A stretch of DNA of 64,000 nt from an uncultured bacterium (GTDB lineage Bacteria; Oederibacteriota; JAAXVQ01; JAUVAV01). Position 1 is the stretch's first letter, and each line of letters opens with the position of its first letter. A program made the position numbers and the translations under genes. The notes under the pieces were generated by a model. That model was not told the origin of the DNA and did no database searches. It saw only the letters and a list, made by a program, of their open reading frames with translations. Of the stretch, positions 1,774 through 64,000 are shown piece after piece. The stretch covers positions 32,001 through 96,000 of the forward strand of contig CAVQBK010000001.1 in assembly GCA_963710755.1 (NCBI GenBank), written 5' to 3'.

Positions 1774-1831
1774 TTGATAATCCTTTGGGCCGACACTAAA
1801 GATACTAATACTCCGGCCTGAAGGAAATGCA

Positions 1832-3988: not shown

Positions 3989-5511
3989 TGAAACGCTTTT
4001 GGCTGATGAGCACAATGCTCTTGATGGCGCTTAGCCTGACCGCTTGCCAGGGACAACCTGGTAAAAATATTATGCGCCAGCTACATACTGAGAAATTAGG
4101 CGTCATGAAGGCGGAAAATTTTGAAAGTCTGAATGCCGCGGCGGACAATAAAATTGCCGGGTTTCTGGTTAAAGACAGTAATAAGCAATATGCAGTTATT
4201 AATGGGGAAAAACAAAAAACGTACCAAGAAGTTGCCCTCTTGTTGTTTAGTCCCGCAGGGAAACGGTCCATGTATGGAGCCAGAGTAGGGAAGAAGTGGT
4301 GCATTGTTCTCGATGGCCGTCAAGGTCCGCTATACGATGCAGTGCTGGGGCCGGATTTTAGTCCTGATGGCAAGAAAGCAGTGTACATCGGCGAATCCAA
4401 CAAAAAACAACACCTGCTCGTTAACGGCGTTCCCGGCCCGGGGTACGATCACATTTGGCCGGTCCAGTTCAGCCAAAACAGCGCCACCATGATTTATTTG
4501 GCCAGGAAAGGTCACAAGAAAACCGTGGTCATCAATGGCCGACCTGGACCTTGGGTGGATGAAGTAGGCCCGCCGGTAATGAGCGCAGACGGCCAAACCG
4601 TAGCTTACCGGGCTGAGAAAAATAAAAAATACATGGTGGTCATCAATCATAATCCGGGAAAGGCCTATGCGCTCTTGGGGAACCCTGTGATCAGTGCCGA
4701 TGGCACCAAAGTGGCCTACGCGGTCATTATAGGCGAGCTGGCTGAAGAAGCCGTGGTGGCTAACAATGAGCTGGGGCCGAAATTCATGGGTGCTATTGAA
4801 AAAGACAGCCTGACCTTCAGTCCTGATGGGAAACGAATTGCCTATATTTTAGAGGAAAAACATAAGCAAAAGGTTGTGGTGGACGGCAAGCCCGGTAAGC
4901 CTTTTGACCGTATTGTCACAGGCTCGATTACTTTCAGCCCGGACAGCAAACAGGTGGCTTATGCCGGTGAAAATGATGTGAAAAAAATGAAAACCAAAAA
5001 GGATGTTATGGTGGTGTCAGGGGAAAAGGAAAGCGAACCCTTTGTGGAATCCCAAAAATTGTTTTTCAGCCCCGATAGTAAAAACTTTTATTTTTTGGTT
5101 AAAAATCTGGATGACAAAAACCTGTTATTTAAAAATTGGAAAAAGATTAAAACCAGCGACGCTATTGTTAGGCCCACGTTCAGTCCGGACGGCAAGAAGT
5201 TTGCCTATGTGTCCGGCAAGGCCGGTAAAGGCCTGGTAGTGGTCATTAATGGACGCAAGCATAAGGTTTATGACGACATCTGGCCCATTAATTTCAGCCC
5301 CACCGGGGCCTACCTATATTATGTGGGGACCCGGGATAACAAACGCAGGGTGATTATTAATGGTAATGAAGGCGAGCCTTATGATGATATTATCAATGGC
5401 AACATCAAATTCATTGGGGAAAACCGGATTAGCTACGCTGCATTAAAGAAAAACCAAGATGATCAATTTGACATTGTTTACGTGGAAGAAACCGTGAAAA
5501 TCAACAAATAA
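3988..5511 (+). CDS. Lipoprotein with TolB/PD40-like beta-propeller repeats
   Basis: Lipobox LSLTA-C; about nine FSPDGK-type repeats; TAATG overlap with the kinase stop codon. Confidence 0.8.
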   Translation: MKRFWLMSTMLLMALSLTACQGQPGKNIMRQLHTEKLGVMKAENFESLNAAADNKIAGFLVKDSNKQYAVINGEKQKTYQEVALLLFSPAGKRSMYGARVGKKWCIVLDGRQGPLYDAVLGPDFSPDGKKAVYIGESNKKQHLLVNGVPGPGYDHIWPVQFSQNSATMIYLARKGHKKTVVINGRPGPWVDEVGPPVMSADGQTVAYRAEKNKKYMVVINHNPGKAYALLGNPVISADGTKVAYAVIIGELAEEAVVANNELGPKFMGAIEKDSLTFSPDGKRIAYILEEKHKQKVVVDGKPGKPFDRIVTGSITFSPDSKQVAYAGENDVKKMKTKKDVMVVSGEKESEPFVESQKLFFSPDSKNFYFLVKNLDDKNLLFKNWKKIKTSDAIVRPTFSPDGKKFAYVSGKAGKGLVVVINGRKHKVYDDIWPINFSPTGAYLYYVGTRDNKRRVIINGNEGEPYDDIINGNIKFIGENRISYAALKKNQDDQFDIVYVEETVKINK

Positions 5512-45953: not shown

Positions 45954-46004
45954 AAAGGTCGAGCTGACCAGAGAAGACAGGGATCCCAAGGAGGGGAAAG
46001 GTAA

Positions 46005-48200: not shown

Positions 48201-48329
48201 TAGGTTTGGAGCGCATTGATTGACGAAGAAAAATATTAGATTCGGCCTTGATCTGATTAAAAAATGGTTAATTTTCCAAATACTACGCCGAAACTTTGGA
48301 CGAAAACAAAGTAAATGAGGGATGGGCTT

Positions 48330-50534
48330 ATGGCATTAAGAAAGATAGTTTTAACCCTTCTAATGTGTGTTGCCGGTTGGGCTGGTTTGGGGATTACTTT
48401 AGGCCTGGCCATGGATGGCTTAAGCCCGGTAACGGAACTTATGCTGTTCAGCGATGAAATGATGGTGCAATCAGCCACCAAGCGGTTGCAGAAGCTGTCT
48501 GAGGTGCCTGGATCGGTTACTATTATTACTGAAAAAGAGATCAGAGAAAGCGGTGCCTTAACCATCTTTGAAGCCCTGAAAAACATGACCGATATGGCCA
48601 TTATCAATGAAAGCCTTTTTGATGCCATCCGCTTTCGAGGCATGCAGGCTTCCTACAATAATAAAATACTGGTTCTGGTGGACGGTCGTAAAGTCAATAC
48701 CATGGACTGGGGCAACTATGACGGTAAATTTGGCACGGACCTGGCCAATGTAAAGCAAATCGAAGTAATTAAAGGTCCGGGGTCATCCCTCTATGGGGCC
48801 AATGCCTATGCTGGAGTCATCAGTATCATCACCAAAGACGGAGCCGAAATTGGCGGCCTTAAAACTGATGTGAGCGTGGGGAATAAACCCGGTGATTTTG
48901 AACTTTCTCAGAAATATTCGCTGACTTATGGCACCAAACAAGGTGATCTGGATTATAAAGTGACCAGCAGTTATTGGCGCGAATTTGTCGTTGATCCCAT
49001 CACTCCCCAGACTCCCAATAGTCTTTGCAATGGTGTGGATGCCAATTTCCGGCTTGCCTATAAAGAGAAATGGATGTTGCAAGGCGGTTATTTCCGTTCC
49101 ACCAATCCCTGGAACGGGTCGCCCTATACCCCCACCCCCAATAACAATGAACAGTTGGAAACCTTGTTCTTAGATGGTACCTATGGGTTGGACTTGAATG
49201 ATCTTTCAAAATTAAAATTACACGTAACGGACAATTATTCTTTGAACAGAATTTTTAAAACCGAATTGTGGAATCTGAATCGAATAAAAATCAACAGTAT
49301 GTCCGATTTGCCGACTCCTACCCCGAGTGTTATTGTGGACGACCAGGGCAATTTTAGCCTGATTACCGATGCGATTGGACAATATTATATCGGGTTTGAG
49401 GATTTGACCAGGATTATGAGCGGCCATGGGGTGGTGGTATCGGACTTGGGAAAGGGCCAGGCCAATGAATTCAATGCCGAGTTGCAATATGACCTGTCCT
49501 GGCCGCAAAACAATTACCTGCTGGCCGGACTTAATGTCAAGTTTGATTGGACCAATCAAAATTATTTTACTCAGGACGAAGTCACCGATCAGAATTATGC
49601 GGTATTTCTTCAAGATGAATATCATCTGGGCGATGATCTGATCTTCTTAAGTGGCTTGCGTTATGATTATAACCGGGATTATGGCAGCAATCTCAGCCCC
49701 AGGGAGAGCCTGATATATGAGCCCCTCAAAGGCCTTCGTATGAAGGCCCTTTATGGCAGCGCCTTCCGCGCGCCCGTAATTCTGGAACGGTATACTTTAA
49801 GTGATTACGGGTTTTATGATGTTACCGGCAATCCGGAGTTAAAACCGGAGAGCATCCAGCAAAGCGAAGCCAGTGTGGAATATGAACTGGGCAAAGTGTT
49901 CCAAGCCAAGGCTGCCTATTTTTACTGGGAAACCAAAAATGAAATTCAATTTGCCTACACGTTTGGCGATCTTTTCGCTTATGTACCCGACTTTAGCCTG
50001 CTTGATCCCATGCAGCCGGCCATGGCCGGTCTGCTTTATTTAAAAGAACTAAATGTGGCCCCTGCCTTTGTGACCTGGGACAATTCCAACAGCCGCATTG
50101 GCCATGGATTGGAATTGGAAACCACCATCACTCCAACGGATTTTGCCCGCCTCAAGTTAAATTATAGCAGGCTTAATCTCTATTCCAGAAACATTTTGGT
50201 AGCCCCTGAATGGGCGCAAGGTGTTGCCGATATTGCGAACGGCATCGTGGAATTGCATTATAAAGATTTGGTGTTTTTAAATGTCTACGCCCATGTTGGC
50301 CGCATGCCAGTCACCGTTGTGGCTGACCCCATGGTCAACCGGGATAGGCATGTGGAAGCCAATTGGCTGCAGCAATATGATGTGAGTCTGGGCTGCAATG
50401 TTCAAGGACTCAGCCTGGTAGCAGCTGTTTTTAATGTATTAAATAATGCCGTGGCCTTTGATGAAAAAGATGCCAAGTATTTAAAAGGTTCACCCATATA
50501 TCGTCTTAATGCGTCGTACACACTTAAATTTTAA
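48330..50534 (+). CDS. TonB-dependent receptor, array copy 3
   Basis: Same plug motifs, GNPELKPE, C-terminal YTLKF; start 48330 (or 48315). Confidence 0.93.
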   Translation: MALRKIVLTLLMCVAGWAGLGITLGLAMDGLSPVTELMLFSDEMMVQSATKRLQKLSEVPGSVTIITEKEIRESGALTIFEALKNMTDMAIINESLFDAIRFRGMQASYNNKILVLVDGRKVNTMDWGNYDGKFGTDLANVKQIEVIKGPGSSLYGANAYAGVISIITKDGAEIGGLKTDVSVGNKPGDFELSQKYSLTYGTKQGDLDYKVTSSYWREFVVDPITPQTPNSLCNGVDANFRLAYKEKWMLQGGYFRSTNPWNGSPYTPTPNNNEQLETLFLDGTYGLDLNDLSKLKLHVTDNYSLNRIFKTELWNLNRIKINSMSDLPTPTPSVIVDDQGNFSLITDAIGQYYIGFEDLTRIMSGHGVVVSDLGKGQANEFNAELQYDLSWPQNNYLLAGLNVKFDWTNQNYFTQDEVTDQNYAVFLQDEYHLGDDLIFLSGLRYDYNRDYGSNLSPRESLIYEPLKGLRMKALYGSAFRAPVILERYTLSDYGFYDVTGNPELKPESIQQSEASVEYELGKVFQAKAAYFYWETKNEIQFAYTFGDLFAYVPDFSLLDPMQPAMAGLLYLKELNVAPAFVTWDNSNSRIGHGLELETTITPTDFARLKLNYSRLNLYSRNILVAPEWAQGVADIANGIVELHYKDLVFLNVYAHVGRMPVTVVADPMVNRDRHVEANWLQQYDVSLGCNVQGLSLVAAVFNVLNNAVAFDEKDAKYLKGSPIYRLNASYTLKF

Positions 50535-50578
50535 GTGTAATAACTACAGCCAATGGGCAACCAAGCTAGGAGGGAAAA

Positions 50579-52790
50579 ATGAATCTCAAAAAGGGTATGT
50601 CAGCAGTTGCCATGATGGCAGTGATCATGGCCGGGACCACGGCAGGGCTGGTTCAAGCCATGGACAGCTTTAATCCGGTAACAGAGCTCATGCTGTTCAG
50701 TGACGAGATTATGGTTATGTCCGCCACCAAGCGCCTGCAGAAGCTCTCCGAAGTGCCTGGGTCGGTCACCATTATTACGGAAAAAGAAATCAAGGAGCGG
50801 GGAGCACTTACGATCTATGATGCCTTGTTCAATATGACTGGTGTTTGTTTTGCCAATGAGGGTCTGTTCAATACCATGCGCTTCCGTGATATGCAAGCTT
50901 CTTATAACAATAAAATATTGGTCTTGGTGGATGGGCGGAAAGTCAATGCGCTGGACTGGGGCAATTATGACGGTAACTTTGGTACCAACCTGGCGAATGT
51001 GAAACAGATCGAAGTGATCAAAGGTCCGGGATCATCCCTCTATGGCGCCAATGCCTATGCCGGGGTTATCAATATCGTGACCAAGGACGGCGCTGAGATC
51101 GGCGGGCTCAAAACGGACATCAGTATTGGCAACAAACCTGGCGATTCGGAAGTCTCCCAGAAATACACGGTAACCTATGGCAATAAAACCGGAGATTGGG
51201 ACTACAAAGTCTCGAGCAGCTACTGGCGTGCATTGGGTATTGATCCATACAATGGTCCTCATCCCAATGACCTCTATACGGGTGACTCGGCTGACTTCAG
51301 TCTGAAATGGAAAGATCAATGGACTTTGAACGGCGGTTATCAGAAAAACAGCAATCCCTGGAGCGGTTCCGAATGGACGCCCACGCCCAGAAACACGGAA
51401 GAAATGGAATCCATCTATTTGGATACCACATATAATCTAACCCTCAATGATCTTTCCAAAGTGAAAGCCCATTTAACGGATACCTATGATTTGACCAGAG
51501 CCCTGCGCAGTGAATATTGGGATATTACCCGCAGAAAGATCAACAGCATAAGCGATCTGCCCACACCGACGCCGGTGGTTATTATAGATGAGCAGGGTAA
51601 CATGGACTTCGACATTGCCAATACTGTGGGTAATTATTACATTGACTTTAATGATTTTGTTAAAATCGCTACCGGTGGCGCGCTGGATGTGGTGGATTTA
51701 GGCCGGGGCCAGATGAATGAATTCAGCGCTGATGTTCAATATGATTTGGCGTGGCCGCAAAACAACTATTTGCTGGCTGGGATCAATGTCAATCTGGCTT
51801 GGTCGAATATTGACTATTATAATATCAATCAAGTAACAGACAATAACTATGCCGCCTACGTCCAGGATGAATATCATTTGGGCGATCAGTTGATCCTGCT
51901 CAGCGGTCTGCGCTATGACTATAACCGGGATTATGGCAGCAACCTGAGCCCCCGGGAGAGCTTGATCTACGAACCGCTCAAAGGTCTGCGTTTCAAGGGC
52001 CTGTATGGCAGTGCTTTTAGGTCGCCTGTGATCTTTGAACGCTATGCTCTGACGGACTATGGCTTTTATGAAGTTAAGGCCAACGTGGATTTAAAACCGG
52101 AGAGCATTCAGCAGAGTGAAGCCAGTGTGGAATATGAAATCGGCAAATGGTTTCAAGCCAAGGCCGATTATTTTTACTGGGAAACTCAGAATGAAATTCA
52201 ATTCGCCTATACCTTTGGAAACCTTTATGCCTATGTGCCTGATTTTAGTTTACTTGATCCCATGCAGCCGTCCATGGCCGGGTTCCTCTATCTGCAAGCG
52301 TTGAATGTAGCTCCTGCCTTTGTAAGTTTTGACAATTCCAACAGCCGCATTGGTCATGGCTTTGAATTGGAAACCAACATCGCACCAACCGATTATACCC
52401 GGCTCAAGTTGAATTACAGCCGCATTAATCTCTATGCCCGAAAAGAACCAATCCATCCTTCCTGGGATCAAGGCGTGGCGGATATTGCCAACGCGGTACT
52501 GGAATTGCATTACCAGGATATGGTTTTTCTTAATTTCTATGCCCACGTAGCCGCAAGCCCCACCAAAATCAAAATGGAGGCGGAAATCCGCTGGTAAAAA
52601 CATATATATAGCCTCCAAATGGCTGCCCCAATATGACGTCAGCCTGGGCTTTAATCTTGATCAATTCAGCCTGGTGGCCGCGGTCTATAACGTATTTTCC
52701 AATCCCGTGGCCTATGATGGAGGCGTGGATGATTATTTGAAAGGCCAACCGCTTTACCGTGTAAATTTGGGGTATACCCTTAAATTTTAA
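50579..52790 (+). pseudogene. TonB-dependent receptor, array copy 4, interrupted by a +1 frameshift near 52565-52594 (pseudogene or sequencing error)
   Basis: ORF stops at 52597; the +1 frame continues SAGKNIYIASKWLPQYDVSLG...RVNLGYTLKF* to 52790, matching the paralogs. Confidence 0.88.
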
Positions 52791-52824
52791 AAAAAATGAG
52801 GTATAACACCATAGGGGGCAGGCA

Positions 52825-55029
52825 ATGGCGGGAATAAGGGGGCTGACAGCAGTTGCCATGATGGGAGTGGTCATGACCGGCGCCATGGCAGGGCTGGTTC
52901 AAGCCATGGACAGCTTTAGTCCGGTAACAGAGCTCATGCTATTCAGTGATGAGATTATGGTCATGTCTGCTACCAAGCGCCTGCAAAAGCTTTCGGAAGT
53001 ACCCGGGTCGGTGACCATCATCACCGAAAAGGAAATTAAAGAACGGGGCGCTTTAACTATTTACGAAGCGCTGACCAATATGACCGGGGTGAGCTTTGCC
53101 AATGAAGGCTTGTTCAACACCATGCGTTTCCGCGGCATGCAAGCGTCCTATAATAACAAGATTTTGGTTTTAGTGGACGGCCGCAAGATCAATGAAATGG
53201 ATTGGGGTAATTACAATGGTGATTTCGGCACCCATTTAGCCAATGTCAAGCAAATCGAGGTGATCAAAGGTCCGGGGTCATCCCTCTATGGGGCCAATGC
53301 CTATGCCGGAGTCATCAATATCGTGACCAAGGACGGAGCTGAAATCAGCGGGCTAAGTACCGAGGTTAGTATAGGCAACAAACCAGGTGATTTTGAAGTG
53401 TCTCAGAAATATACCATGACTTACGGAACCCAAAACGGGGACTGGGATTATAAGGTATCAACTAGTTATTGGAGGGAAAAGGGCATTGATCCTTATAACC
53501 ATCCCAGTCCCAACAACTTGTTTACCGGCGACCAGGCTAATTTCAGTCTGAAATGGAAAGATCAATGGAGCCTGCAAGGCGGCTATCAACGGACTAAAAA
53601 TCCATGGAATGGATCCGAATGGACGCCCACACCTAAAAATGCTGAAGAATTGGAAATATTATATTTGGACAGTACCTATACTATGGAGCTTAATGATCTT
53701 TCCAAAGTCAAGTTGCGGATAAGTGACAACTATGATTTGAATAAAGTCTTGCTCAGTGAGTATTGGGATTTAAACCGTATCAAGATTAACTCACTAAGCG
53801 ATTTGCCTTCTCCTTCCCCTGTGATCATTGTCACCGATACCGGAGAAATGCAGCCGATTGCCAATGCCATCGGCCGTTACTACATCCCTTTTGAAAATTT
53901 TATCAATCTGGCCAACAACCAGGCCCTTGATGTGGTGGCTTTGGGCCGCGGCCAAATCAACGAATTCATGACAGATGTACAGTATGACCTTTCCTGGCCG
54001 CGAAATAATTATTTGTTGGCCGGCGTCAATGTGCAATACGGTTGGTCCAATATGGATTATTACAATCAGCCCCAGGTGACAGATAACAATTACGCGGTTT
54101 ATGTTCAGGATGAGTATCATTTGGGTGATCAGCTCATTCTTTTGAGTGGGTTGCGTTATGACTACAACCAGGATTATGGCAGTAATCTTAGCCCCCGGGA
54201 AAGCGTTATCTATGAACCTGTGAAAGGGTTGCGTCTGAAAGGCTTATATGGCAGCGCTTTTCGCGCGCCCGTGATATCGGAACGCTATTCAGAGACGGAT
54301 TATGGTTTTTATGAAGCCACGGGCAATATTAATTTAAAACCTGAAAACATCCAGCAGAGTGAAGCCAGCATAGAATACGAGCTGGGCAAATGGCTGCAGG
54401 CCAAGGCCGGTTATTTTTATTGGGAAACGCACAATGAAATTCAATTTGATTATACTTATGCCAATTTGTACGCTTATGTGCCTGATTTCAACCTGATCGA
54501 TCCCATGCAACCACACATGGCAGGACTGCTTTATTTGAAGGACCTAAATGTGGCCCCGGCCTTGGTGACTTGGGACAACACCAACAGCCGCATTGGCCAT
54601 GGGGTGGAACTGGAAACCATCTTGACCCCGAGTGATTTTACCAAGCTTAAACTCAATTACAGCCGGATCAATCTTTACGCCCGGGATATTCCTGGAGCAC
54701 CAGAATGGGATCAAGGCATAGCGACGATAGCCAATGCTGTTTTGGAATTACATTATAAAGACTTGGTTTTCCTGAATTTTTATGCCCATCTGTCGTCAAG
54801 TCCAACCAAAAACACTAATGGCGGCTTGGACGGAAACGGCTATTACATAGCGTCCAAATGGTTGCCTCTGTATGACGTGAGCCTGGGCTTTAACATTGAC
54901 AAATTCAGCCTGGTGGCCGCGGCTTACAATGTCTTTGAAAATCCTGTGGCCTATGATAGTGCCATTGATGATTACCTGAAAGGCCAGACCCTTTATCGTG
55001 TGAATTTGGGGTATACCCTTAAATTTTAA
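52825..55029 (+). CDS. TonB-dependent receptor, array copy 5
   Basis: Same plug motifs, NLKPE, C-terminal YTLKF. Confidence 0.93.
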   Translation: MAGIRGLTAVAMMGVVMTGAMAGLVQAMDSFSPVTELMLFSDEIMVMSATKRLQKLSEVPGSVTIITEKEIKERGALTIYEALTNMTGVSFANEGLFNTMRFRGMQASYNNKILVLVDGRKINEMDWGNYNGDFGTHLANVKQIEVIKGPGSSLYGANAYAGVINIVTKDGAEISGLSTEVSIGNKPGDFEVSQKYTMTYGTQNGDWDYKVSTSYWREKGIDPYNHPSPNNLFTGDQANFSLKWKDQWSLQGGYQRTKNPWNGSEWTPTPKNAEELEILYLDSTYTMELNDLSKVKLRISDNYDLNKVLLSEYWDLNRIKINSLSDLPSPSPVIIVTDTGEMQPIANAIGRYYIPFENFINLANNQALDVVALGRGQINEFMTDVQYDLSWPRNNYLLAGVNVQYGWSNMDYYNQPQVTDNNYAVYVQDEYHLGDQLILLSGLRYDYNQDYGSNLSPRESVIYEPVKGLRLKGLYGSAFRAPVISERYSETDYGFYEATGNINLKPENIQQSEASIEYELGKWLQAKAGYFYWETHNEIQFDYTYANLYAYVPDFNLIDPMQPHMAGLLYLKDLNVAPALVTWDNTNSRIGHGVELETILTPSDFTKLKLNYSRINLYARDIPGAPEWDQGIATIANAVLELHYKDLVFLNFYAHLSSSPTKNTNGGLDGNGYYIASKWLPLYDVSLGFNIDKFSLVAAAYNVFENPVAYDSAIDDYLKGQTLYRVNLGYTLKF

Positions 55030-55066
55030 AAGTATTGTTGAACAATCCCAATGGAGGATGAAAGAA

Positions 55067-57271
55067 ATGATAAAAAATGGACCTTTGGCTTTAATCGTGG
55101 CTCTGGTAGTGACCTCCACGACAACCGTTGCAGTAAAAGCCATGAGTGATTTGAACCAAGTCACGGAACTCATGCTTTTCAGCGATGAGATCATGGTCCA
55201 ATCAGCTACCAAGCGTCTGCAAAAGCTCTCCGAAGTGCCGGGATCGGTGACCATCATTACGGCTAAAGAGATTGAGGAACGGGGAGCCTTAACCATTTAT
55301 GAAGCCTTGAATAACATGACTGGTGTCAGCTTTGCCAATGAAGGTCTGTTTAATACCATGCGTTTTCGTGGCATGCAGGCTTCTTACAACAATAAAATAT
55401 TGCTTCTAGTGGACGGCAGGAAAGTCAATGTCCTCGATTGGGGCAATTATGACGGTAACTTTGGCACCAATCTGGACAATGTCAAGCAGATCGAGGTAAT
55501 CAAGGGTCCCGGGTCTTCGCTCTACGGCGCCAATGCCTATGCCGGTGTGATCAGTATTATCACCAAAACCGGTGCCGAGATCGGTGGTCTGAAAACCGAG
55601 ATGAGCGTAAGCAATAAACCCGGTGATTTTGAGGTGTCCCAAAAGTACAGCCTGACCTATGGTACCAAACAGGATGGCCTGGATTACAAAGTCTCGGCCA
55701 GCTATTGGCGCCAATTGGGCATTGACCCTTTTAATGATCCTCGCCCCAATGATTTATATGAAGGAGAAGATGCCAACTTTAGCCTAAATTTGAAGGATAT
55801 CTGGACACTCCAGGGCGGTTATCACCGTTCCAGCGAACCTTGGAGCGGGTCGGTGTATACGCCAACTCCCAGGAATAATCAGAAAATGGAAATGCTTTAT
55901 TTGGACAGCACCTATACGCTGGGGTTGAATGAATTGTCCAAATTGAAACTCCATATAAGCGATAATTATAACACCTCAAAATTCCTTGAGACGGAATTGT
56001 GGGACCTGGACAGGCAGAAAATTAATAGCGCGGCTGATTTGCCTACTCCTACGCCATCTATTATTGTTACCGACAAAGGGGACATGCAACCAGTAACCAA
56101 TGCCATCGGCAATTATTATATTGGTGTCAATGACTTTCTTAGAATTGTCAGCGGCAGCGGCTTAGATGTAGTGGGTTTAGGTAAAGGACAGATGAATGAA
56201 TTTATCGCTGAAGTCCAATATGACCTGTCCTGGCCGCAGAACAACTATCTTTTGGCCGGGATTAATATGAAATTGGACTGGTCCAACCAGATTTATTTTG
56301 TGACCGATCAAGTCACGGATAACAATTATGCTGCTTATATCCAGGATGAATATCACTTGGCCGATAAATTAATCCTTTTAAGCGGATTGCGTTTTGACTA
56401 TAACCGGGATTATGGTAATAATCTCAGCCCCCGGGAAAGCTTGATCTACGAACCCCTTAAAGGCCTGCGCTTTAAAGGCCTTTATGGAAGTGCTTTTAGA
56501 TCGCCGGTGATGTTGGAAAGATATAGCAATACGGATTACGGGTTTTATGAAGCCACCGGCAACCCTGATGTAAAACCGGAAAGCATTCAGCAAAGTGAAG
56601 CCAGCGTGGAATACGAGCTGGGTAAATGGCTGCAGGCCAAGGCGAACTATTTTTACTGGGAAACGCAAAATGAAATCCAATTTGTCTATACCTTTGGATC
56701 GCTCTATGTCTATTCACCTGATCTCAGCCTGATCAGCCCTCTTATGCCCGCCGTGCCGGGTCTGTTCTATGCTACTCCCTTAAATGTCGCACCGGCACTG
56801 GTGAGTTGGGATAATTCCAACAGCCGTATCGGCCATGGATTGGAATTGGAGACATCGATTACACCTACTGACTATGCTCGAATTAAATTAAATTACAGTC
56901 GCGTCAATCTTTATGCGCGGGAAAAGCCAGCCCATCCATCATGGGCGCAAGGCGTGGCTGATGTGGGCAATGGTGTGTTGGAACTGCATTATAAAAATGT
57001 ACTCTTTTTCAATTTTTATGCTCATATTAGCCGGACGCCCATGACTATTGACAGCGGTTCCACAGCGACGTCCGGCCCGGGAGCTGAGGTGACCGCCAAA
57101 TGGCTGCCGCAATATGATGTCAGCTTGGGATGCAATTATCAGGGGTTAAGCCTGGTAGGGGCAGTCTATAATATTTTTAATAACCCCGTGGCCTATGACA
57201 CCCTTAACGATAATTATCTGAAGGCCGAGCCCATCTACAGACTCAATGCTTCCTATACTCTGAAGTTTTAG
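55067..57271 (+). CDS. TonB-dependent receptor, array copy 6
   Basis: Same plug motifs, GNPDVKPE, C-terminal YTLKF; GGAGG spacing favours ATG 55067 over 55058. Confidence 0.93.
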   Translation: MIKNGPLALIVALVVTSTTTVAVKAMSDLNQVTELMLFSDEIMVQSATKRLQKLSEVPGSVTIITAKEIEERGALTIYEALNNMTGVSFANEGLFNTMRFRGMQASYNNKILLLVDGRKVNVLDWGNYDGNFGTNLDNVKQIEVIKGPGSSLYGANAYAGVISIITKTGAEIGGLKTEMSVSNKPGDFEVSQKYSLTYGTKQDGLDYKVSASYWRQLGIDPFNDPRPNDLYEGEDANFSLNLKDIWTLQGGYHRSSEPWSGSVYTPTPRNNQKMEMLYLDSTYTLGLNELSKLKLHISDNYNTSKFLETELWDLDRQKINSAADLPTPTPSIIVTDKGDMQPVTNAIGNYYIGVNDFLRIVSGSGLDVVGLGKGQMNEFIAEVQYDLSWPQNNYLLAGINMKLDWSNQIYFVTDQVTDNNYAAYIQDEYHLADKLILLSGLRFDYNRDYGNNLSPRESLIYEPLKGLRFKGLYGSAFRSPVMLERYSNTDYGFYEATGNPDVKPESIQQSEASVEYELGKWLQAKANYFYWETQNEIQFVYTFGSLYVYSPDLSLISPLMPAVPGLFYATPLNVAPALVSWDNSNSRIGHGLELETSITPTDYARIKLNYSRVNLYAREKPAHPSWAQGVADVGNGVLELHYKNVLFFNFYAHISRTPMTIDSGSTATSGPGAEVTAKWLPQYDVSLGCNYQGLSLVGAVYNIFNNPVAYDTLNDNYLKAEPIYRLNASYTLKF

Positions 57272-57360
57272 TTGTTTTTGTAGCCCAATGACCGGTTAAG
57301 CTTCGGCTTGTTTAAAATGCGGCCGGTGATTAGACGACCTTGAAAGAACGCATGGGTAGA

Positions 57361-57423
57361 GTACAGGTTACTTGTACGGCGCAGGCTGGATGCCAGTCCC
57401 TACGCAGCCAACCGCCGTCTGCC
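57361..57423 (-). repeat. Dispersed ~63-bp repeat, copy 2
   Basis: Reverse complement aligns with 27765-27828. Confidence 0.8.
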
Positions 57424-57597
57424 TAAGGATTTGGTCAACATCCTGTCAAAAACAAGAACGGATTTAGTTCATGGCTCTATTGGCAACCTGCATCTGCGCT
57501 TGGCCCATAGAGCTCTATTTTTCTAAAAAAGCATATAACATGAAAGGAAAACGCGACTTGAATGTCAAAAGGTTAAAACTATTCAAGGAGCGACTCA

Positions 57598-58329
57598 TTG
57601 AAGCCATTAAACCGACCTTTGCAATGTCTAGTCCATCTCAAGTCACTTTTGAGTCCTTCGGTCTGTCCCGTTTGTAAGCGTTCTGCCAACCATTATGCCT
57701 TGCCTATTTTATGCCACCGCTGTCGTCCTAAAGTAAACAATAACCGGCGCTGCTTAAAATGCGGCCGGCTGCTATCGTTAACTATGCCCTATGATATTAT
57801 CGGATGTCGCTATTGCCAAAAAATGTCGTTCACCTTCAATAGTGTTTACTGTTTAGCGGGTTATGAAGGCCTATGGAAAGAAGTCGTTCTTGCCTTTAAA
57901 GCCCATCCAGACCTTTTCCTGATGCTCCAGTTAGCCCACCGCTTCTCCCGAATTCTTAGAAACATCATGGCTGTTACCCGCGATACCTTGGTGGTCACTG
58001 TCCCGCGGCGCTGGAAACACCAGCCCCAAGCCCTCGTCTTCGTCGCAAAAAAAATTGCTTTTTATTCGGATTGTGCCTTTGCCCAACCCTTACGATTTAT
58101 TCGCGCCACCAAGCCGCAACATCAGCTCGGCAGGGAAAAACGTTTGAAAAATATGCGTTTTAGCATGGAAGCCAAAGTTTTGGTGAAGGATAAAGCCATT
58201 GTTTTAATTGACGATGTCCTGACCACAGGCGCTACCCTAAATGAATGCAGCCGGGCGTTGAAAAAAGCAGGGGCAAACTCTGTTGTCGCGCTCACACTGG
58301 CCAGGTCGCTGACCGTATTGGACAAATGA
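57598..58329 (+). CDS. comF: ComF/GntX-family protein (double zinc ribbon + phosphoribosyltransferase)
   Basis: Four CxxC pairs; LIDDVLTTGATL PRPP loop; TTG start after AAGGAG. Confidence 0.9.
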   Translation: MKPLNRPLQCLVHLKSLLSPSVCPVCKRSANHYALPILCHRCRPKVNNNRRCLKCGRLLSLTMPYDIIGCRYCQKMSFTFNSVYCLAGYEGLWKEVVLAFKAHPDLFLMLQLAHRFSRILRNIMAVTRDTLVVTVPRRWKHQPQALVFVAKKIAFYSDCAFAQPLRFIRATKPQHQLGREKRLKNMRFSMEAKVLVKDKAIVLIDDVLTTGATLNECSRALKKAGANSVVALTLARSLTVLDK

Positions 58330-58457
58330 ATAGGCCATTAGGGAAAATAATCCATAAAATGTAATAAAAACTGAACACACCCATCTTAAGTAAAAAATTA
58401 AAAGTTACTTATAAAATTAACAAAACCATCATAAAAAATTTATAATACCCAAAAAAA

Positions 58458-58519
58458 TGTGCACAGTGCACAAAAAGTTAATACATTTTCTTGACATAGT
58501 AATTAAAAACAGGTACAAT
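58458..58519 (+). promoter_or_regulatory. Sigma70 promoter with upstream palindromic operator
   Basis: TGTGCAC-A-GTGCACA (58458-58472), then TTGACA-17 nt-TACAAT. Confidence 0.7.
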
Positions 58520-58552
58520 AACGCCACTTAGAAAAAAATATGGGGGGCGAAG

Positions 58553-59920
58553 TTGAAGCCAACAGTATTAGTTGTCGACGATGATAAGCAGGTCAATGAA
58601 GCCTTAACTCTCATGCTCCAGGATGAGTACAATCCCATCACTGCAACCTCCGGCTTTGAAGCCTTAGAGAAGATCAATAAAAATTCCAATATTGACTTAG
58701 TCCTGCTCGATATTACTATGCCCGAAATGGACGGGCTGGAAGTCCTGAGGAGGATCAAGGAATCCGAACCTTTCCTGGATGTCATCATGGTGACGGCCAC
58801 CAATACTACTGAAGCAGCGGTTAAAACCATTAAATATGGCGCCTACGATTATGTGACCAAGCCTTTTGACAATGCGGAATTAAAAGCCATTATCAACCGG
58901 GCCCTGGAAAAACGAAATCTTTCCAAACTCACAGAAGTCTTGTCTTCTGAAATTGAACGGCTTGTGGAATATGACATTATTGGCAACAGTGACGCTATGC
59001 GGGGCGTTTATTCCATGATTGATAAGGTAGCCGATTCAGACACTACGGTGCTGATTCATGGCGAAAGCGGCACAGGCAAGGAATTGGTGGCCCGCGCGCT
59101 ACATAAAAAAAGTCCCCGTTCTAAAAAACCCTTTGTGGCTGTTAACTGCGCTGCCATCCCGGCGGAACTGGTGGAAAGTGAATTTTTTGGCCATGAACGT
59201 GGGGCTTTTACTTCGGCTGTATCAAGAAAAATCGGAAAATTTGAGTATGCCAATGGCGGGGTTATTTTTCTCGATGATGTAGGCGAGTTGCCTTTGTCCG
59301 TTCAAGCCAAATTACTGCGGGTCCTGCAGGAAAAAGAAATCGTGCGCGTTGGCTCCAATGAATTGATCCCGGTGGATGTGCGGGTGGTCGCTGCCACTAA
59401 TGACAACCTTCAGGAATTGATCAAACAGCGCCGTTTCAGAGAAGACCTGTATTACCGTCTGAAAGTGGTGCCTATTGAATTGCCGCCTTTGCGGGTGAGA
59501 CGGGAAGATATTCCCAACTTAATCGAACACTTTATCCGCAAAAGCTGTGAACGCCATCATAAGTCTTTTAAAAATATCGATCCCGAAGCCCTGCGTTTGT
59601 TGGTCAACTATAATTGGCCCGGCAATGTGCGGGAATTGGAGAACATGGTGGAGATGGTGGTATTGCTCTCCAGTAGCAATTCTATTTCCGCCAGCGATCT
59701 GCCGTCCAATGTGCTTACCAATCAGGCTTTGGCCGATGGCAGTGATCAAAGCGGAGAAAATCTAACTTTGAAAAAGGCGCGCCAACAGTTTGAGCGCCAG
59801 TTTATTTTAAGAGTTTTGGAAAAATTGCATTGGAATCAAACCAAAGCAGCCAAGATAATGGGCATTCATCGCAATACGCTGATTATCAAGATGGAAGAGC
59901 TGGGCATTAAAAAAGATTAA
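58553..59920 (+). CDS. NtrC/AtoC-family response regulator (REC-AAA+-Fis HTH)
   Basis: VVDDD, LLDITMP, GESGTGKE, GAFTSA, FREDLYYRL, WPGNVREL, NQTKAAKIMGIHRNTL. Confidence 0.95.
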   Translation: MKPTVLVVDDDKQVNEALTLMLQDEYNPITATSGFEALEKINKNSNIDLVLLDITMPEMDGLEVLRRIKESEPFLDVIMVTATNTTEAAVKTIKYGAYDYVTKPFDNAELKAIINRALEKRNLSKLTEVLSSEIERLVEYDIIGNSDAMRGVYSMIDKVADSDTTVLIHGESGTGKELVARALHKKSPRSKKPFVAVNCAAIPAELVESEFFGHERGAFTSAVSRKIGKFEYANGGVIFLDDVGELPLSVQAKLLRVLQEKEIVRVGSNELIPVDVRVVAATNDNLQELIKQRRFREDLYYRLKVVPIELPPLRVRREDIPNLIEHFIRKSCERHHKSFKNIDPEALRLLVNYNWPGNVRELENMVEMVVLLSSSNSISASDLPSNVLTNQALADGSDQSGENLTLKKARQQFERQFILRVLEKLHWNQTKAAKIMGIHRNTLIIKMEELGIKKD

Positions 59921-59934
59921 TCTTACAAAAAAGA

Positions 59935-59964
59935 TTGCACCATTTTTTTTAAAAATGGTATACT
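59935..59964 (+). promoter_or_regulatory. Candidate sigma70 promoter (extended -10)
   Basis: TTGCAC-18 nt-TATACT with TGn immediately upstream of -10. Confidence 0.5.
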
Positions 59965-60451
59965 TCAACCAGTCCCATGGTGGAAAGGGGGGGAACTATG
60001 GGAGTCTGCAGTTTTACTCATTTGCTGTTGCATTCCCAAGCCCAATGCAAGTCCTTTTCTGACAGAACCCCAAACTGCCAGCCGTCCAGTTATAGTCAAA
60101 ACAGTCTTACCAGAGATATCGGCCACATTAAGTTGTGTTTTTTGAACAAGTCGACCACAAGATATGCACAAACCCTATACCAACCTCATTTAACCGCTGC
60201 TGCCAACACCATAAAGAAGACCTTTTTAAAAAAATTTACCTTAACACGAAAAAATTTCACCAGTTGGGCGTTGTAAAAAAGGGTGTACTGAGACTGTGAA
60301 AAGAACTTTTTATGGGAGAATGCCATTGCTGCTGTTTTTTGTGCAGGATGTTTCTCAATTATAGGTTCGTCACATTTCAAAAAAACTTTAGGGAGGAGGC
60401 GTTGATTTTGTAAAAAAAAGCAGTTCCATTAAAAGTTAAGAGGAGGGAAAG

Positions 60452-60928
60452 ATGAGAAAGAAAATGTTAATCGTGGATGATAACGAAAATTTGAGGGAAG
60501 CTTTGCAACTGATGTTCGAAGACCATTATGATCTTAAGTTTGCGGCCTCCGGTGAAGAAGCTATTCAATCTTTTGACCAATTCAATCCTGAAGTAGTCCT
60601 GATGGATTTCCAAATGCCCGGTCTTGACGGGGTTCAAACCATGCAAGTGTTAAGAGAGCAATCCGCCCAATCCCAGATGATCATCATGTCTGCCTATAAT
60701 GAAAAAGAACGGGTAAGAAGCGCTTTCCGAAACGGGGCCTTTGATTTCGTGACCAAACCCTTTGACGTAAAAGACCTGAAAACCATGGTGGAAAATGCCG
60801 CTGCCAACGCGGACAAGATCATTAATTTCCAGCCCTCGGCCTATCTGGTGCAAGCCAAAGAAGCAGCCTTTAACCAACGGGAAGTCGACCAAATGGTGGA
60901 ACGTACGCTGCAAGCAGCTTGCTGCTAA
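60452..60928 (+). CDS. Receiver-domain response regulator with short C-terminal tail
   Basis: IVDD, LMDFQMPGLDG, MSAY, FVTKPF; AGGAGG RBS. Confidence 0.92.
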   Translation: MRKKMLIVDDNENLREALQLMFEDHYDLKFAASGEEAIQSFDQFNPEVVLMDFQMPGLDGVQTMQVLREQSAQSQMIIMSAYNEKERVRSAFRNGAFDFVTKPFDVKDLKTMVENAAANADKIINFQPSAYLVQAKEAAFNQREVDQMVERTLQAACC

Positions 60929-60960
60929 AGTTTCATTGATGTCAAAAGGGGGGAGTAGTC

Positions 60961-61875
60961 ATGAATTTAATGGCCGTTAGTCCGGAAAGCAGATCCACAA
61001 ATCAATCACCGGTGTTTGTACCCACAGCACAAGTCAATCCGGCCAATGCGATTTTGAAATTTGAAAAAGCCTCTGAAAAAACAACCCGCTATACCGAAAA
61101 CAGTACTATTTACAGATTAAAAGGCGGGTTTGAGGCCGAGGTTATAAAACAACCTTCACGCAGAATAAAAGACCAACCAATCCTGAACAGGATCTATCAG
61201 GAATTAAGAATCGTGACTTTGCGGGCCTTTAACAAGGATATTTCGGAAGCTGAGACCTATGTGCCCAGATATGTTATGGAAAAAAATGTTTTGGATGTAG
61301 ATTGGTTAATCGTGGTGAGAAAATATAATCAGCCTGTTGCCTTTGGCGCAGGGACTTATGTTACGCCATTTATTTTCTACTTAAATGGTGCCATGGTTCA
61401 TCCTGATTATCAATCAACAGGCGTTGGACTGATTGCCAATAGTTTACTGTGGAAAATCGTGTGCGATGAGGTTAAGGATATGGGCCTGGGTGAAGCGGAT
61501 TTTGTGTGCCGAACTCACAATCGCAATGTGGCCAGTGTAATGTTGCATGTTTTTGAAGAAGGCTATATTTCCACAGAAAAAGAATGTAGTTCCGACCATT
61601 GCCGAATTTTTAACAAAACAGCCAATAAAATTGGTGGTCATTATTGTCCGCAAAGCGGCATTGCTAAAAATGCCTATCCGGAAGGACTGCCGTGTGGGAC
61701 GAAGATCACCAACATGAGAATAAATAACGCGTTTGTTGGTTTGGGAGAAAAAGATGGTTTGTTTGTTGCTGGGAAAATGAAATATCATTATTTGCAAAAC
61801 ATTTTGAAAAAGAATGTTAAGGAAATTCATGAATACCAAGAGTTGAAAGGCCTGGAATACAAATTGTGTGCATGA
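60961..61875 (+). CDS. GNAT-fold acyltransferase-like protein
   Basis: Acyl-CoA-binding motif A pattern AMVHPDYQSTGVG preceded by GNAT-like strands (LIVVR..PVAF..FYLNG). Confidence 0.65.
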   Translation: MNLMAVSPESRSTNQSPVFVPTAQVNPANAILKFEKASEKTTRYTENSTIYRLKGGFEAEVIKQPSRRIKDQPILNRIYQELRIVTLRAFNKDISEAETYVPRYVMEKNVLDVDWLIVVRKYNQPVAFGAGTYVTPFIFYLNGAMVHPDYQSTGVGLIANSLLWKIVCDEVKDMGLGEADFVCRTHNRNVASVMLHVFEEGYISTEKECSSDHCRIFNKTANKIGGHYCPQSGIAKNAYPEGLPCGTKITNMRINNAFVGLGEKDGLFVAGKMKYHYLQNILKKNVKEIHEYQELKGLEYKLCA

Positions 61876-61933
61876 GTTAAGAAACGTTGTTTTTAAAATT
61901 CAAACGTATTAGTTGTGTGGATTGGGGATTGTA

Positions 61934-62641
61934 GTGTTTGACTTAAGAAAAAAAGTCAAGTCATGGTTATGGGGCGTTTATCCGTGGGTATATGATTTAG
62001 CAGTATTGCAAGGGTTGCCTTATTTGGAATTGATTGAAACCGTGGTGATTTCTCTTGAGGAAAGATATCACGATAAAAATAATATGCTGGTTTTGGATGC
62101 ATGTTGCGGGACTGGTAATTTTTCAAAAGCCCTCATTAATAATTTCAAAATCCAATCCTTGGTAGGGATAGACTTTTCCAAGGGCATGATTAAAAAAGCC
62201 AAAAAGAAAATTCCGCTTCTCAAAGCTATTAATGCTCCTTTGCTTGAAGGGTTAAAAAAAATACCGGATAATAATTTTGATATTATTGTTTTGGTGAACG
62301 GCTTCTATCCTCTTGAAGAAAAACATGAGATCCTGCTAAACTTGAAAAGAGTGTTGAAAGTTAATGGTACCTTTATTATGACCGATCCTAAAAAAGGAGC
62401 TAGTTTGTTTTCCTTGATAAAAGAACATTTTTTAAAAGGGAGTTTTGCTCAAAAAATGAAATTACCACTATTTGTTTTTTCAATTCTGATTAGCCTGATT
62501 TTTCAGTTTGGTATAAAATATAATTTCTTAACTAGTGAGGAAACTAAAGGACTTTTAATAAAGACTGGCCTAATGATTGACGAGGAAAAATCAGCATATG
62601 CTGATCAGAATTATTTCTTTGTTTTAAGGAAAGGGAATTGA
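61934..62641 (+). CDS. Class I SAM-dependent methyltransferase
   Basis: VLDACCGTGN, GIDFSKGMI, FDIIV, RVLKVNG; start uncertain (61913 or GTG 61934). Confidence 0.9.
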   Translation: MFDLRKKVKSWLWGVYPWVYDLAVLQGLPYLELIETVVISLEERYHDKNNMLVLDACCGTGNFSKALINNFKIQSLVGIDFSKGMIKKAKKKIPLLKAINAPLLEGLKKIPDNNFDIIVLVNGFYPLEEKHEILLNLKRVLKVNGTFIMTDPKKGASLFSLIKEHFLKGSFAQKMKLPLFVFSILISLIFQFGIKYNFLTSEETKGLLIKTGLMIDEEKSAYADQNYFFVLRKGN

Positions 62642-62642
62642 G

Positions 62643-64000
62643 TTGCTCCATGAACACATTCTGATAATTGCTATTATTGATTTTGCTCTCGGGCTTTATA
62701 TTTTATTTAAGAATCCCAAAAAGCAACCTAATGTGGCCTTTGCACTCCTCTCTTTAAACTTCACCCTGTGGCTGGTCGGATTATTTTTATTGATGAATTC
62801 ACATGAATATAAAAATGTTTTGGTTTGGGGGCGCCTTACTTTTACTGGTGGGATGTTAGCGCCCGCGGCTTTGCTCCATTTTATTAAGTCTTTTCCTGAT
62901 AAAAAAATAAACTTCAAAAAGATTTGGCTTCTATATTCTCCTGGTTTGATATCCCTAGTACTATCTATTACACCTCTTGTAATTAAAGATGTGAAAATAC
63001 ATAGCTGGGGCCTGGAGCCTGTTCCGGGAATAGGCTATGCTTTTGTAATTGTTTATTTTATATCGTATATTATTTTGTCCATAATATCTATTCTTAAAGA
63101 ATTTTTAAAATCGAAAAATGTAAAAAAAATGCATTGGTTATATATTTTGTTCGGATTTCCTATTCCTGTGGCACATGTTTTAACCACGAATATCATTCTG
63201 CCATTGCTGGGATTTAAAAATGTCTATGTTTTTGGTCCTTGGGCAACTATCGAAATGTGTTTGCTGTTCAGCTATGCGATACTTAAATATCGATTGTTAG
63301 AAGTCGAAATAATATTTAAAAGAACGTCGATTTATCTGATGCTAGCTGCTTTTATTTCGTGTGTATATATTTTCTTTTTAATACTGCCTTTGGAAATATT
63401 TAAAAGTATTGGTCGAAATGGATCGTTGGCTGTTATGTTCATATCGGCAATAATTATTGCTTTGACAATTCAGCCTCTTCGCGAATGGCTTGATCGGGTG
63501 ACGGATCGTTTTTTCTTTCAAAAGAAATATGACTACACTAAAATATTGGAAAAAGTTTCAAAGCAATTAAATACAGTCATGCACAACCGGGATGCTTATG
63601 ATGCCGTTATGGATCCCATGCTCAATGAGATGCATTTGAAGGGCGCGGCCATTTATCTCCATGCTAAACCGGGGGATGAGTATTTTGAATGCCAGAAAAA
63701 AGATGGGAACTTGGGCCTCTGTTTTGCCCGAAAAAATCCAGGATAGTAGTATGTTGCTGGAGTATTTAAGTCAGCAAGCCAAATATCTTGATCCTGGTGA
63801 ATTTCGTTACGAATATGGCCATCTCTATGCGGATGGTGAGATCAAGGATCCCCGCAAGGCAGCCATTCAAAATGAAATGGACCAAGTATTCCATGGGGCG
63901 TTACTCATTCCCTTAATGCTCAAAACCAATATGATCGGTTTTATGACACTTGGGAGAAAAGCGGTCCGGAGATCAATTCAGCCATCGTGATTTATCCTTG
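62643..64000 (+). CDS. 7TM (HisKA_7TM-like)-GAF sensor, probably a histidine kinase; two +1 frameshifts, runs off the window end
   Basis: N-terminus parallels 1832..3988 (KNP..N..F, YAILKYRL, DRFFF); continues in +1 frame (VLPEKIQD..LLIPL..IGFMTL) and again (GEKRSGDQFSHRDL); kinase core not in window. Confidence 0.8.

Follow-up and report, generated by a model that had tools for sequence, protein, structure and literature searches.

The 64,000-nucleotide stretch analyzed here (the window, G000:C1:32001-96000) comes from the genome of an uncultured soil bacterium (G000; an assembly of 13 contigs and 3.44 Mb, 98% complete) and ends in a cassette of four co-oriented open reading frames (ORFs) at 60452-64000. 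These encode a stand-alone receiver, a GNAT-fold protein, a methyltransferase, and a histidine kinase with a seven-transmembrane (7TM) sensor domain, and are separated by spacings of 32, 37, and 1 nt. Comparison with related genomes reveals that the core of the GNAT gene, the gene in the position of the methyltransferase (the enzyme slot), and the 7TM domain of the kinase are exchanged as one AT-rich block and that the signaling core is conserved. Block exchange around a conserved signaling core is expected if the block sets both the identity of a signal and the matching receptor, a situation known from the specificity groups of agr and comQXP. The reading developed below is that a small molecule, probably lipophilic, is made by the bacterium itself and sensed through the 7TM domain inherited with the enzymes, an arrangement resembling the agr/comQXP groups except that a peptide gene is absent; its chance of being correct is put at about even.

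Exchange of an enzyme-sensor block between congeners

The adjacency of enzyme and sensor, on which an earlier interpretation made from the letters of the window alone (the sequence-only reading) had depended, recurs across the order when the gene order NtrC-receiver-GNAT-[enzyme]-kinase is compared. The cassette, as marked by the GNAT gene, occurs in 10 of the 15 genomes of the order, G000 included (6/10 in family f1 and 3/4 in f2), and among 46 genomes sampled across 15 further families of the phylum the GNAT gene was found in none. The named relatives carrying the gene are metagenome bins, one of them labeled candidate division FCPU426. A receiver orthologue, 44-54% identical to that of the window, precedes the GNAT gene in all nine relatives, and an NtrC orthologue lies further upstream in eight (seven complete and 69-75% identical, one cut by a contig end), the contig of the ninth ending before this position. 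Downstream, seven relatives have a HisKA_7TM kinase (six complete, one cut by a contig end) and two contigs stop earlier. A further genome, G013, has a receiver orthologue at a contig end, and a second GNAT-kinase pair is present in G014 and G012 with nothing between the two genes, beside prolyl-tRNA synthetase and a GAF-sigma-54 activator.

The slot itself is occupied by enzymes of different classes. It holds a methyltransferase in G000, G009, and G002, a radical SAM enzyme of ~360 amino acids (aa) in G008, G014, G012, and G004, two B12-binding radical SAM enzymes in G007, and a ThiF-methyltransferase fusion in G003; the contig of G011 stops short of this position. The enzymes are interchangeable among relatives, as the sequence-only reading had proposed.

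Two congeneric pairs, defined by genus label (G002/G008 and G009/G007), delimit the exchanged block. Outside it, identities within the pairs (G002/G008 first) are 91% and 89% for the NtrC-type activator, 91% and 82% for the receiver, 84% and 55% for the linker and GAF region of the kinase, and 86% and 79% for its dimerization and catalytic domains (DHp+CA). Inside it, the GNAT protein is 48% and 41% identical and the 7TM domain 24% and 30%, and the slot enzymes differ in kind, with the methyltransferase of G002 facing a radical SAM enzyme in G008 and that of G009 facing the two B12-radical SAM enzymes of G007. At the DNA level, G002 and G008 are ~88% identical from the NtrC gene to GNAT codon ~111, after which no similarity is detectable until kinase codon ~215, and from there to the end of the kinase gene identity is 87%. 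Similarly, in G009 and G007 similarity is lost ~19 codons into the GNAT gene, one 84-nt patch apart, and is back at kinase codon ~232. In maximum-likelihood trees, NtrC and DHp+CA each group the congeners together with support of 100/100, and the 7TM tree places them on opposite sides of a 96/95 split.

Base composition follows the same limits. In all seven loci with a full kinase, the GC content of the GNAT core, slot, and 7TM domain is 0.28-0.44 vs. 0.42-0.61 in the NtrC and receiver genes, the extreme being G009, with 0.40-0.43 in the block and 0.59-0.61 outside it. In G000 the block has 0.33-0.40 between flanks of 0.46, and the profile of the window goes down to 0.356 at 62001-64000. In addition, the first 70 residues of the GNAT protein of the window are 64% identical to P0003, a relative from a metagenome, and the remainder 29-48%, an identity step that hints at a third such junction.

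The sensor domain also tracks the slot. Identity of the 7TM domains is 48-60% among the three methyltransferase loci, 38-45% among G008, G014, and G007 (radical SAM types), and 21-30% between these two groups, and the 7TM domain of G003, the locus with the ThiF-methyltransferase fusion, is at most 29% identical to that of any other locus; DHp+CA identity outside the congeneric pairs is flat at 51-60%. As the genomes are few and related, this correlation is treated as a pattern and not as a statistic. A plain adjacency of regulator and target, in which the two-component system controls the neighboring enzymes and no ligand connects enzyme with sensor, would agree with the frequent location of regulators beside their own targets and with a kinase dispensable enough to read as broken in G000, but it leaves unexplained both the breakpoints, which in each of two independent pairs lie within the GNAT gene and precisely where the 7TM domain ends, and the similarity of the 7TM domains that tracks the slot enzyme, and it has only a very slight chance of accounting for the locus. 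Modularity and a coupling of enzyme to sensor are well supported by these comparisons of sequences. The arrangement in the window, described beforehand as four tightly spaced co-oriented genes behind an NtrC-like regulator, is confirmed by the ORFs and by Pfam (Table 1); the NtrC-type activator gene ends 531 nt upstream of the receiver.

Table 1. Features of the cassette and its left flank, in window coordinates
Feature	Position	Strand	Evidence or remark
NtrC-type sigma-54 activator, left flank, conserved	58553..59920	+	Pfam: REC, Sigma54_activat, AAA lid, HTH_8 (Fis-type)
Stand-alone receiver, left flank, conserved	60452..60928	+	158 aa; Response_reg E 2.3e-27 (Pfam)
GNAT-fold protein, rare family without Pfam model	60961..61875	+	304 aa; fold and motif A
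Class I SAM methyltransferase in the variable enzyme slot	61913..62641	+	Methyltransf_31/25/11 (Pfam)
Histidine kinase piece 1, HisKA_7TM (residues 1-232) and start of linker/GAF	62643..63746	+	Pfam; orthologue alignment
Histidine kinase piece 2, GAF-like region	63661..63990	+	aligns with orthologue residues ~350-456
Histidine kinase piece 3, HisKA and HATPase_c	63950..64000, on to G000:C1:96852	+	Pfam
Frameshift 1, one surplus base	63700..63746	+	six intact orthologues aligned with the three pieces
Frameshift 2, one surplus base	63944..63952	+	six intact orthologues aligned with the three pieces
Exchangeable specificity block, approximate (GNAT core, methyltransferase, 7TM)	61170..63340	+	limits inferred from relatives and composition

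The GNAT-fold protein and the slot enzymes

By its predicted fold, the 304-aa protein is a member of the GNAT superfamily, so that its earlier description as GNAT-like holds by fold, without a Pfam match above cut-off. No Pfam family is assigned at E 0.01, Acetyltransf_1 reaching just 15.9 bits vs. a cut-off of 20.7 (E 0.016); NCBIfam gives zero matches, and a profile of the family finds nothing among the sequences of solved structures (best E 0.79). Some distant members of the family (P0033, P0034, and P0039) pass the Pfam GNAT model. The AlphaFold model (predicted local distance difference test score, pLDDT, 82; predicted template modeling score, pTM, 0.78) has disordered residues 1-40 and 292-304, and Foldseek finds 145 matches to it in the Protein Data Bank at E up to 0.001, with RimI the best at E 4.4e-6. 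In a VIA-align comparison against 48,161 chains, the best match is Ard1 (Z 13.7, root-mean-square deviation 2.6, 146 residues aligned), and the top 50 listed run from Z 13.7 to 11.0, the next ones after Ard1 being tied within ~1 unit. Among the Foldseek and VIA-align matches listed, every chain is of GNAT type and none of LuxI type.

The protein has the core fold and the QxxGxG pyrophosphate-binding loop in common with the GNAT acetyltransferases RimI, Ard1/Naa, and AAC, and is unlike them in its ~75 extra residues, its 40-residue disordered N-terminus, and its score below the Pfam cut-off. In GNAT enzymes, the motif A loop Q/RxxGxG/A binds the pyrophosphate of coenzyme A; here the motif reads Q151-S-T-G154-V-G156, in which Q151, G154, and G156 are invariant in 7 sequences and G156 in 29. 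An insertion of ~60 residues carries the family signature GI..NVYP.GLP.G and the invariant residues S204, G233, Y239, and D265. Apart from the protein itself, 6 relatives turned up among 5.8 billion proteins in a word-based search; an exhaustive search with a profile gave 44 among 1.84 billion representatives (E up to 0.001), 25 of them at E up to 1e-30, and the sole match in a scan of metagenome contigs was one contig of 1730 bases. Three distant relatives from metagenomes (P0032, P0033, and P0037) have long N-terminal extensions, two of which are without a known domain; that of P0033 is a PlsC-type acyltransferase domain, an OlsF-like architecture, of which the PlsC part alone aligns with the OlsF model (E 0.0012, 17.5 bits vs. 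a cut-off of 620). The C-terminus of many family members (61840-61875 in the window) is a short hydrophobic tail closing in Ala or Ala-Ala (LAAA, LVAA, SLAA, PAYA, KLCA). Such Ala-ending tails are reminiscent of ssrA-like degradation tags.

The fold matches bear on the possibility that the 7TM domain detects a foreign compound such as an antibiotic or a nutrient and that the co-transcribed enzymes modify or detoxify the same molecule, so that enzyme and sensor would co-vary because both bind the same outside compound. Many resistance enzymes are found among GNATs and methyltransferases, the fold matches listed include aminoglycoside, streptothricin, and phosphinothricin acetyltransferases, and block exchange would suit varying targets too. 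Against this, the cassette is without a transporter or efflux gene, and the B12-radical SAM enzymes, ThiF fusions, ketosynthases, and nonribosomal peptide synthetase (NRPS)-like adenylation-thiolation-thioesterase (A-T-TE) proteins with phosphopantetheinyl transferase (PPTase) that accompany these kinases are of biosynthetic and not of detoxifying types. This explanation is improbable.

The identification of the neighboring gene as a methyltransferase was sound, the Pfam models Methyltransf_31, 25, and 11 all scoring above their cut-offs. Every NCBIfam match is below cut-off, the fatty-acid O-methyltransferase Mtf2 model scoring 25 bits vs. 400. Translation probably starts at the GTG at 61934, as judged from the sequence and the N-termini of orthologues, and a hydrophobic helix predicted by hydropathy near residues 183-200 is conserved in sequence among orthologues. 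Of the other slot enzymes, the radical SAM enzymes have a cysteine-rich C-terminal region, and the matches of the B12-radical SAM enzymes, all below cut-off, include models of C-methyltransferases of ribosomally synthesized and post-translationally modified peptides (RiPPs); one G007 enzyme fits best to the model of the hopanoid C-3 methylase HpnR, likewise below cut-off.

Every slot enzyme class is a known RiPP tailoring class, and together with the cysteine-rich region and the sub-threshold RiPP C-methyltransferase matches this would accord with a small gene-encoded peptide that is tailored by the enzymes and sensed by the kinase, as in agr and comQXP. With gaps of 1-37 nt, the genes of the cassette in G000 leave no room for a precursor gene, and no shared short ORF was found in the gaps examined (five relatives; downstream of the kinase in G000). 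A RiPP precursor may be encoded elsewhere than in the cassette, and a RiPP-like signal is highly improbable.

The sensor kinase, its relatives, and the flanks of the cassette

The N-terminus of the kinase matches HisKA_7TM (PF16927) over its first 221 residues (71.7 bits vs. a cut-off of 28.6), and HisKA and HATPase_c are present in the third piece, the order of domains across the pieces being that of a HisKA_7TM kinase. The sequence-only reading was right about the 7TM sensor but overlooked two one-base insertions, which split the gene into three pieces in frames 2, 0, and 1, the last of which ends 852 nt beyond the window. The orthologues are intact and 710-738 aa long, and relative to six of them the G000 kinase has two +1 shifts. 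The first lies between the codons for ...KKDGNLGL and LPEKIQD..., with the run TGTTTTG as its simplest site, and is followed by a premature stop; the second lies between ...GFMT and LGEKRSGDQFS, outside any homopolymer. Soil metagenome contigs from one study that are 100% identical to parts of the kinase gene cover neither frameshift site, and no RNA source was listed. The breaks may be either real mutations, making the gene a pseudogene, or assembly errors. A structure model of the 7TM domain (pLDDT 88) has a weak likeness to G-protein-coupled receptor (GPCR) bundles in Foldseek (best E 7.8e-4, TM score 0.61), which may reflect no more than the common seven-helix arrangement. In the papers found that name HisKA_7TM, the domain is given solely as a sensor, without a ligand.

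The kinase was also correctly recognized as a diverged paralog of a second kinase of the window, encoded at 1832-3988, the two being 24% identical at the N-terminus (365 aa aligned, E 2e-13) and 40% in the kinase core. That kinase and the radical SAM enzyme at 766-1773 recur in G003 at 38% and 48% identity, respectively. The whole first cassette (766-5511) comprises the radical SAM gene, a HisKA_7TM/GAF kinase gene, and a gene for a PD40-repeat protein, and the radical SAM enzyme has a paralogue on contig C3 that is 47% identical and not beside a kinase. A link between the two cassettes through their radical SAM enzymes is not supported, that of the first cassette having zero BLAST matches to the slot radical SAM enzymes at E 1e-3. 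A third HisKA_7TM kinase of G000 lies at G000:C1:248146-256349 in tandem with a 739-aa kinase without a 7TM Pfam match, and a radical SAM gene is found ~2.7 kb upstream of it on the opposite strand.

Enzymes upstream of 7TM kinases, which the sequence-only reading had suggested cataloguing, were surveyed across the phylum. PF16927 (E up to 1e-5) gave 71 matches in 29 of 61 genomes, and the upstream DNA of 40 was examined. The 31 left out were the 10 loci studied above and the third kinase of G000, five at contig ends, one partial match, six below cut-off, and eight second tandem members or matches with little upstream sequence; one of the 40 loci had no upstream DNA, giving n = 39. Among the two ORFs upstream, co-oriented enzymes were present in 13/39 loci, a count to be read against the 31 radical SAM and 29 Methyltransf_25 matches in the 3.44 Mb of G000, each roughly 1 gene in 100 at an estimated ~3,000 genes. 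Co-oriented sensor proteins or hemerythrin were present in 7/39, other or unknown co-oriented genes in 5/39, and a divergent gene in 14/39. The 13 enzyme cases were ketosynthase with methyltransferase (3), B12-radical SAM with ICMT/PEMT-type methyltransferase (2), HAD hydrolase (2), and, one each, B12-radical SAM with methyltransferase, NRPS-like A-T-TE with PPTase, ThiF, methyltransferase with DUF1287, GT2 with a ferredoxin-like protein, and flavoprotein with receiver. The B12-radical SAM enzymes of G007 (L016, 8867-11904) are 33-45% identical to ones upstream of 7TM kinases in other families. Homologous B12-radical SAM enzymes were seen in L090, L096, and L092, and in two of these loci a PEMT/ICMT-type membrane methyltransferase gene lies between the radical SAM and kinase genes.

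The conserved helix of the methyltransferase and the lipid-type enzymes at other loci hint that the product is lipophilic and that its sensing takes place in the membrane. The same observations suit a cell-autonomous form of sensing, in which the enzymes alter the lipids of their own cell (making, for instance, an N-acyl amino lipid and methylating it, or C-methylated lipids) and the 7TM kinase acts as a feedback monitor without any intercellular signal. The fusion of P0033 to a PlsC-type domain, the PEMT/ICMT-family methyltransferases and ketosynthases upstream of other 7TM kinases, and the closeness of one G007 slot enzyme to the HpnR model, though below cut-off, are further points in its favor. 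Nevertheless, the P0033 match to OlsF covers the PlsC part alone and is far below cut-off, the swapping of enzyme and sensor as a block of foreign composition is a known signature of specificity groups, and we know of no precedent for the replacement of an enzyme-sensor block in lipid homeostasis. Membrane self-monitoring of this kind is considered unlikely, though it keeps a real share of the probability.

The flanks of the cassette have several features of their own. The C-terminal tail of the receiver, EVDxMIxxTLRxAC followed by L, V, I, or C, is kept in the alignment of all 10 orthologues, and its conserved penultimate Cys (tail at 60800-60928) is odd for a stand-alone receiver encoded beside an acyltransferase. 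At 59957-60023, 40-100 nt past the NtrC stop codon, a hairpin (CCCAUAG, a loop with a run of six to seven G, and CUGUGGG) stands in the same place as in G009, G007, G003, and G011, with some compensating changes and minimum free energies of -16 to -23 kcal/mol. A terminator, a leader, and a small RNA are possible identities, and a search of 57000-64000 against Rfam (E up to 1) gave zero matches, the hairpin included. A strong Shine-Dalgarno-like box (GGAGGTG; here GGGAGGAGG) is located at ~60395-60410, 40-60 nt before the receiver start. Boxes of this type recur in 10 loci, 60-90 nt upstream of the receiver's own ribosome-binding site, and a consistent short ORF after the box is absent across them. 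Counts of sigma-70 promoter and terminator patterns at the locus are at chance level; by reading of the sequence, a sigma-70-like pair TTTACA/TATACT precedes the receiver in G002 and G008. PADLOC returned generic domain-level matches for the receiver and methyltransferase and nothing for the GNAT protein or the 7TM piece, so the locus is not a known defense system.

Further upstream, the window contains six co-oriented ORFs of 672-739 aa at 43752-57271, of which the three tested encode TonB-dependent receptors (Plug and barrel), and a ComF-like phosphoribosyltransferase gene at 57598-58329. Of the ~720-aa ORFs upstream of NtrC in relatives, the two tested encode polynucleotide phosphorylase (PNPase) and not TonB receptors; the upstream flank thus differs from that of G000 and is not conserved. 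Right after the kinase, beyond the window, lies a 97-aa ORF (64893-65186; L002 6893-7186) without a counterpart in relatives, where the 3' side of the kinase is occupied by 2-oxoacid:ferredoxin oxidoreductase genes and a gene for a REC-GAF-HD-GYP protein, or by other genes.

Candidate function and meaning for the phylum

In the proposed signal system, the GNAT-fold enzyme would make an acylated compound and the slot enzyme would tailor it, here by SAM-dependent methylation and in relatives by a radical SAM enzyme, B12-radical SAM enzymes, or a ThiF-methyltransferase fusion. Within the membrane, this product, probably lipophilic, would be recognized by the HisKA_7TM domain of the cassette's own kinase, which would in turn act on the stand-alone receiver and/or on the NtrC-type sigma-54 activator encoded upstream.

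Several observations weigh against this proposal. The likeness to LuxI and N-acyl amino acid synthases drawn by the sequence-only reading is not supported by Pfam: neither LuxI (PF00765) nor Acetyltransf_5 (PF13444; N-acyl amino acid synthase/OlsB type) is matched at Pfam E up to 10. The solved folds that come closest, with scores that are tied, belong to generic acetyltransferases of proteins and small molecules, so that what would tie the GNAT-fold protein to signal synthases is its predicted fold class alone. GNAT subtypes do not track the slot, with G002, G003, and G012 forming one clade with three different slot enzymes. The two frameshifts make the receptor gene read as broken in G000, and the system may be signal-blind there. 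In G001, a genome of the same genus with a completeness of 92%, the GNAT gene is not seen and neither is the receiver, and the seven loci with a full kinase all come from metagenome bins of kin that are not independent. The sigma-54 consensus has 32 matches vs. 41 expected from shuffles and zero in the NtrC-receiver spacer, so no promoter-like site stands out. The PEMT/ICMT enzymes, the HpnR-like B12-radical SAM enzyme, and the ketosynthase fit membrane-lipid modification equally well. Finally, the product, its export, and the response to it are all putative. Overall, the earlier interpretation is partly supported.

Known systems share parts of this logic. In the Vibrio systems LuxM/LuxN and CqsA/CqsS and in LqsA/LqsS of Legionella, the gene of a small-molecule autoinducer synthase lies beside that of a multi-pass membrane histidine kinase responsive to a hydrophobic signal; their enzymes and sensors belong to other families than those of the window cassette. 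To our knowledge, a slot with interchangeable enzymes is not known in these systems. In agr, a hypervariable region extends across agrB-agrD-agrC within conserved flanks and underlies cognate groups of signal and receptor (PMC12312760). The cassette resembles agrBDCA in that its variable block, bounded by conserved flanks, takes in a modifying enzyme together with the membrane sensor of a kinase. Unlike agr, it has a GNAT protein with a methyltransferase, radical SAM enzyme, or ThiF fusion where agr has a membrane peptidase, the gaps examined contained no gene for a precursor peptide, its variants differ by whole enzyme class and not by peptide sequence, its sensor is HisKA_7TM, and its output is proposed to pass through a receiver and a sigma-54 activator. 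Loss of agr function by frameshift has occurred repeatedly (PMC8768832).

Similarly, comQXPA has the genes of a modifying enzyme, a signal, and a multi-pass membrane kinase side by side on one strand and polymorphic between close strains, which creates communication groups (PMC4008528), and the cassette is like these Bacillus pherotypes in its adjacent enzyme and membrane kinase genes that are polymorphic between close relatives. It is unlike comQXPA in that ComQ, an isoprenyl transferase, modifies the ComX peptide and the cassette is without a peptide gene, the families being unrelated. In Ralstonia, the SAM-dependent methyltransferase PhcB yields the lipophilic methyl ester methyl 3-hydroxymyristate, which is detected by the histidine kinase PhcS (PMC8578825, PMC11960443). 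The logic of a methyltransferase with a sensor kinase is common to both, through a shared class I SAM methyltransferase fold, and the portions of the PhcB/PhcS descriptions consulted mention no GNAT partner, exchangeable block, or HisKA_7TM domain. No description of cassettes like the one in the window was found in a literature search covering mainly non-subscription journals.

A broader proposal, possible but held tentatively and with some doubt, is that FCPU426 possesses an undescribed family of chemical communication systems, in which dialects arise by the swapping of whole tailoring enzymes together with a matching GPCR-like seven-helix receptor domain. The dialect enzymes would be the methyltransferase, radical SAM, B12-radical SAM, and ThiF fusion types of the slot, with ketosynthase and NRPS-like modules elsewhere, an extension that is offered in the same tentative spirit. 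If the block sets both signal and receptor, the natural swaps between congeners provide matched and mismatched pairs, which makes the hypothesis directly testable by heterologous expression. Even if the kinase instead monitors the lipids of its own cell, the locus links a sensor domain of unknown function with defined chemistry. If the dialects are real, a first class of ligands would be assigned to the HisKA_7TM sensor domain, and pherotype-style diversification would reach beyond peptides to small molecules built by enzymes, so that in this uncultured candidate phylum communication would have diversified through the exchange of enzymes rather than of peptide sequences.

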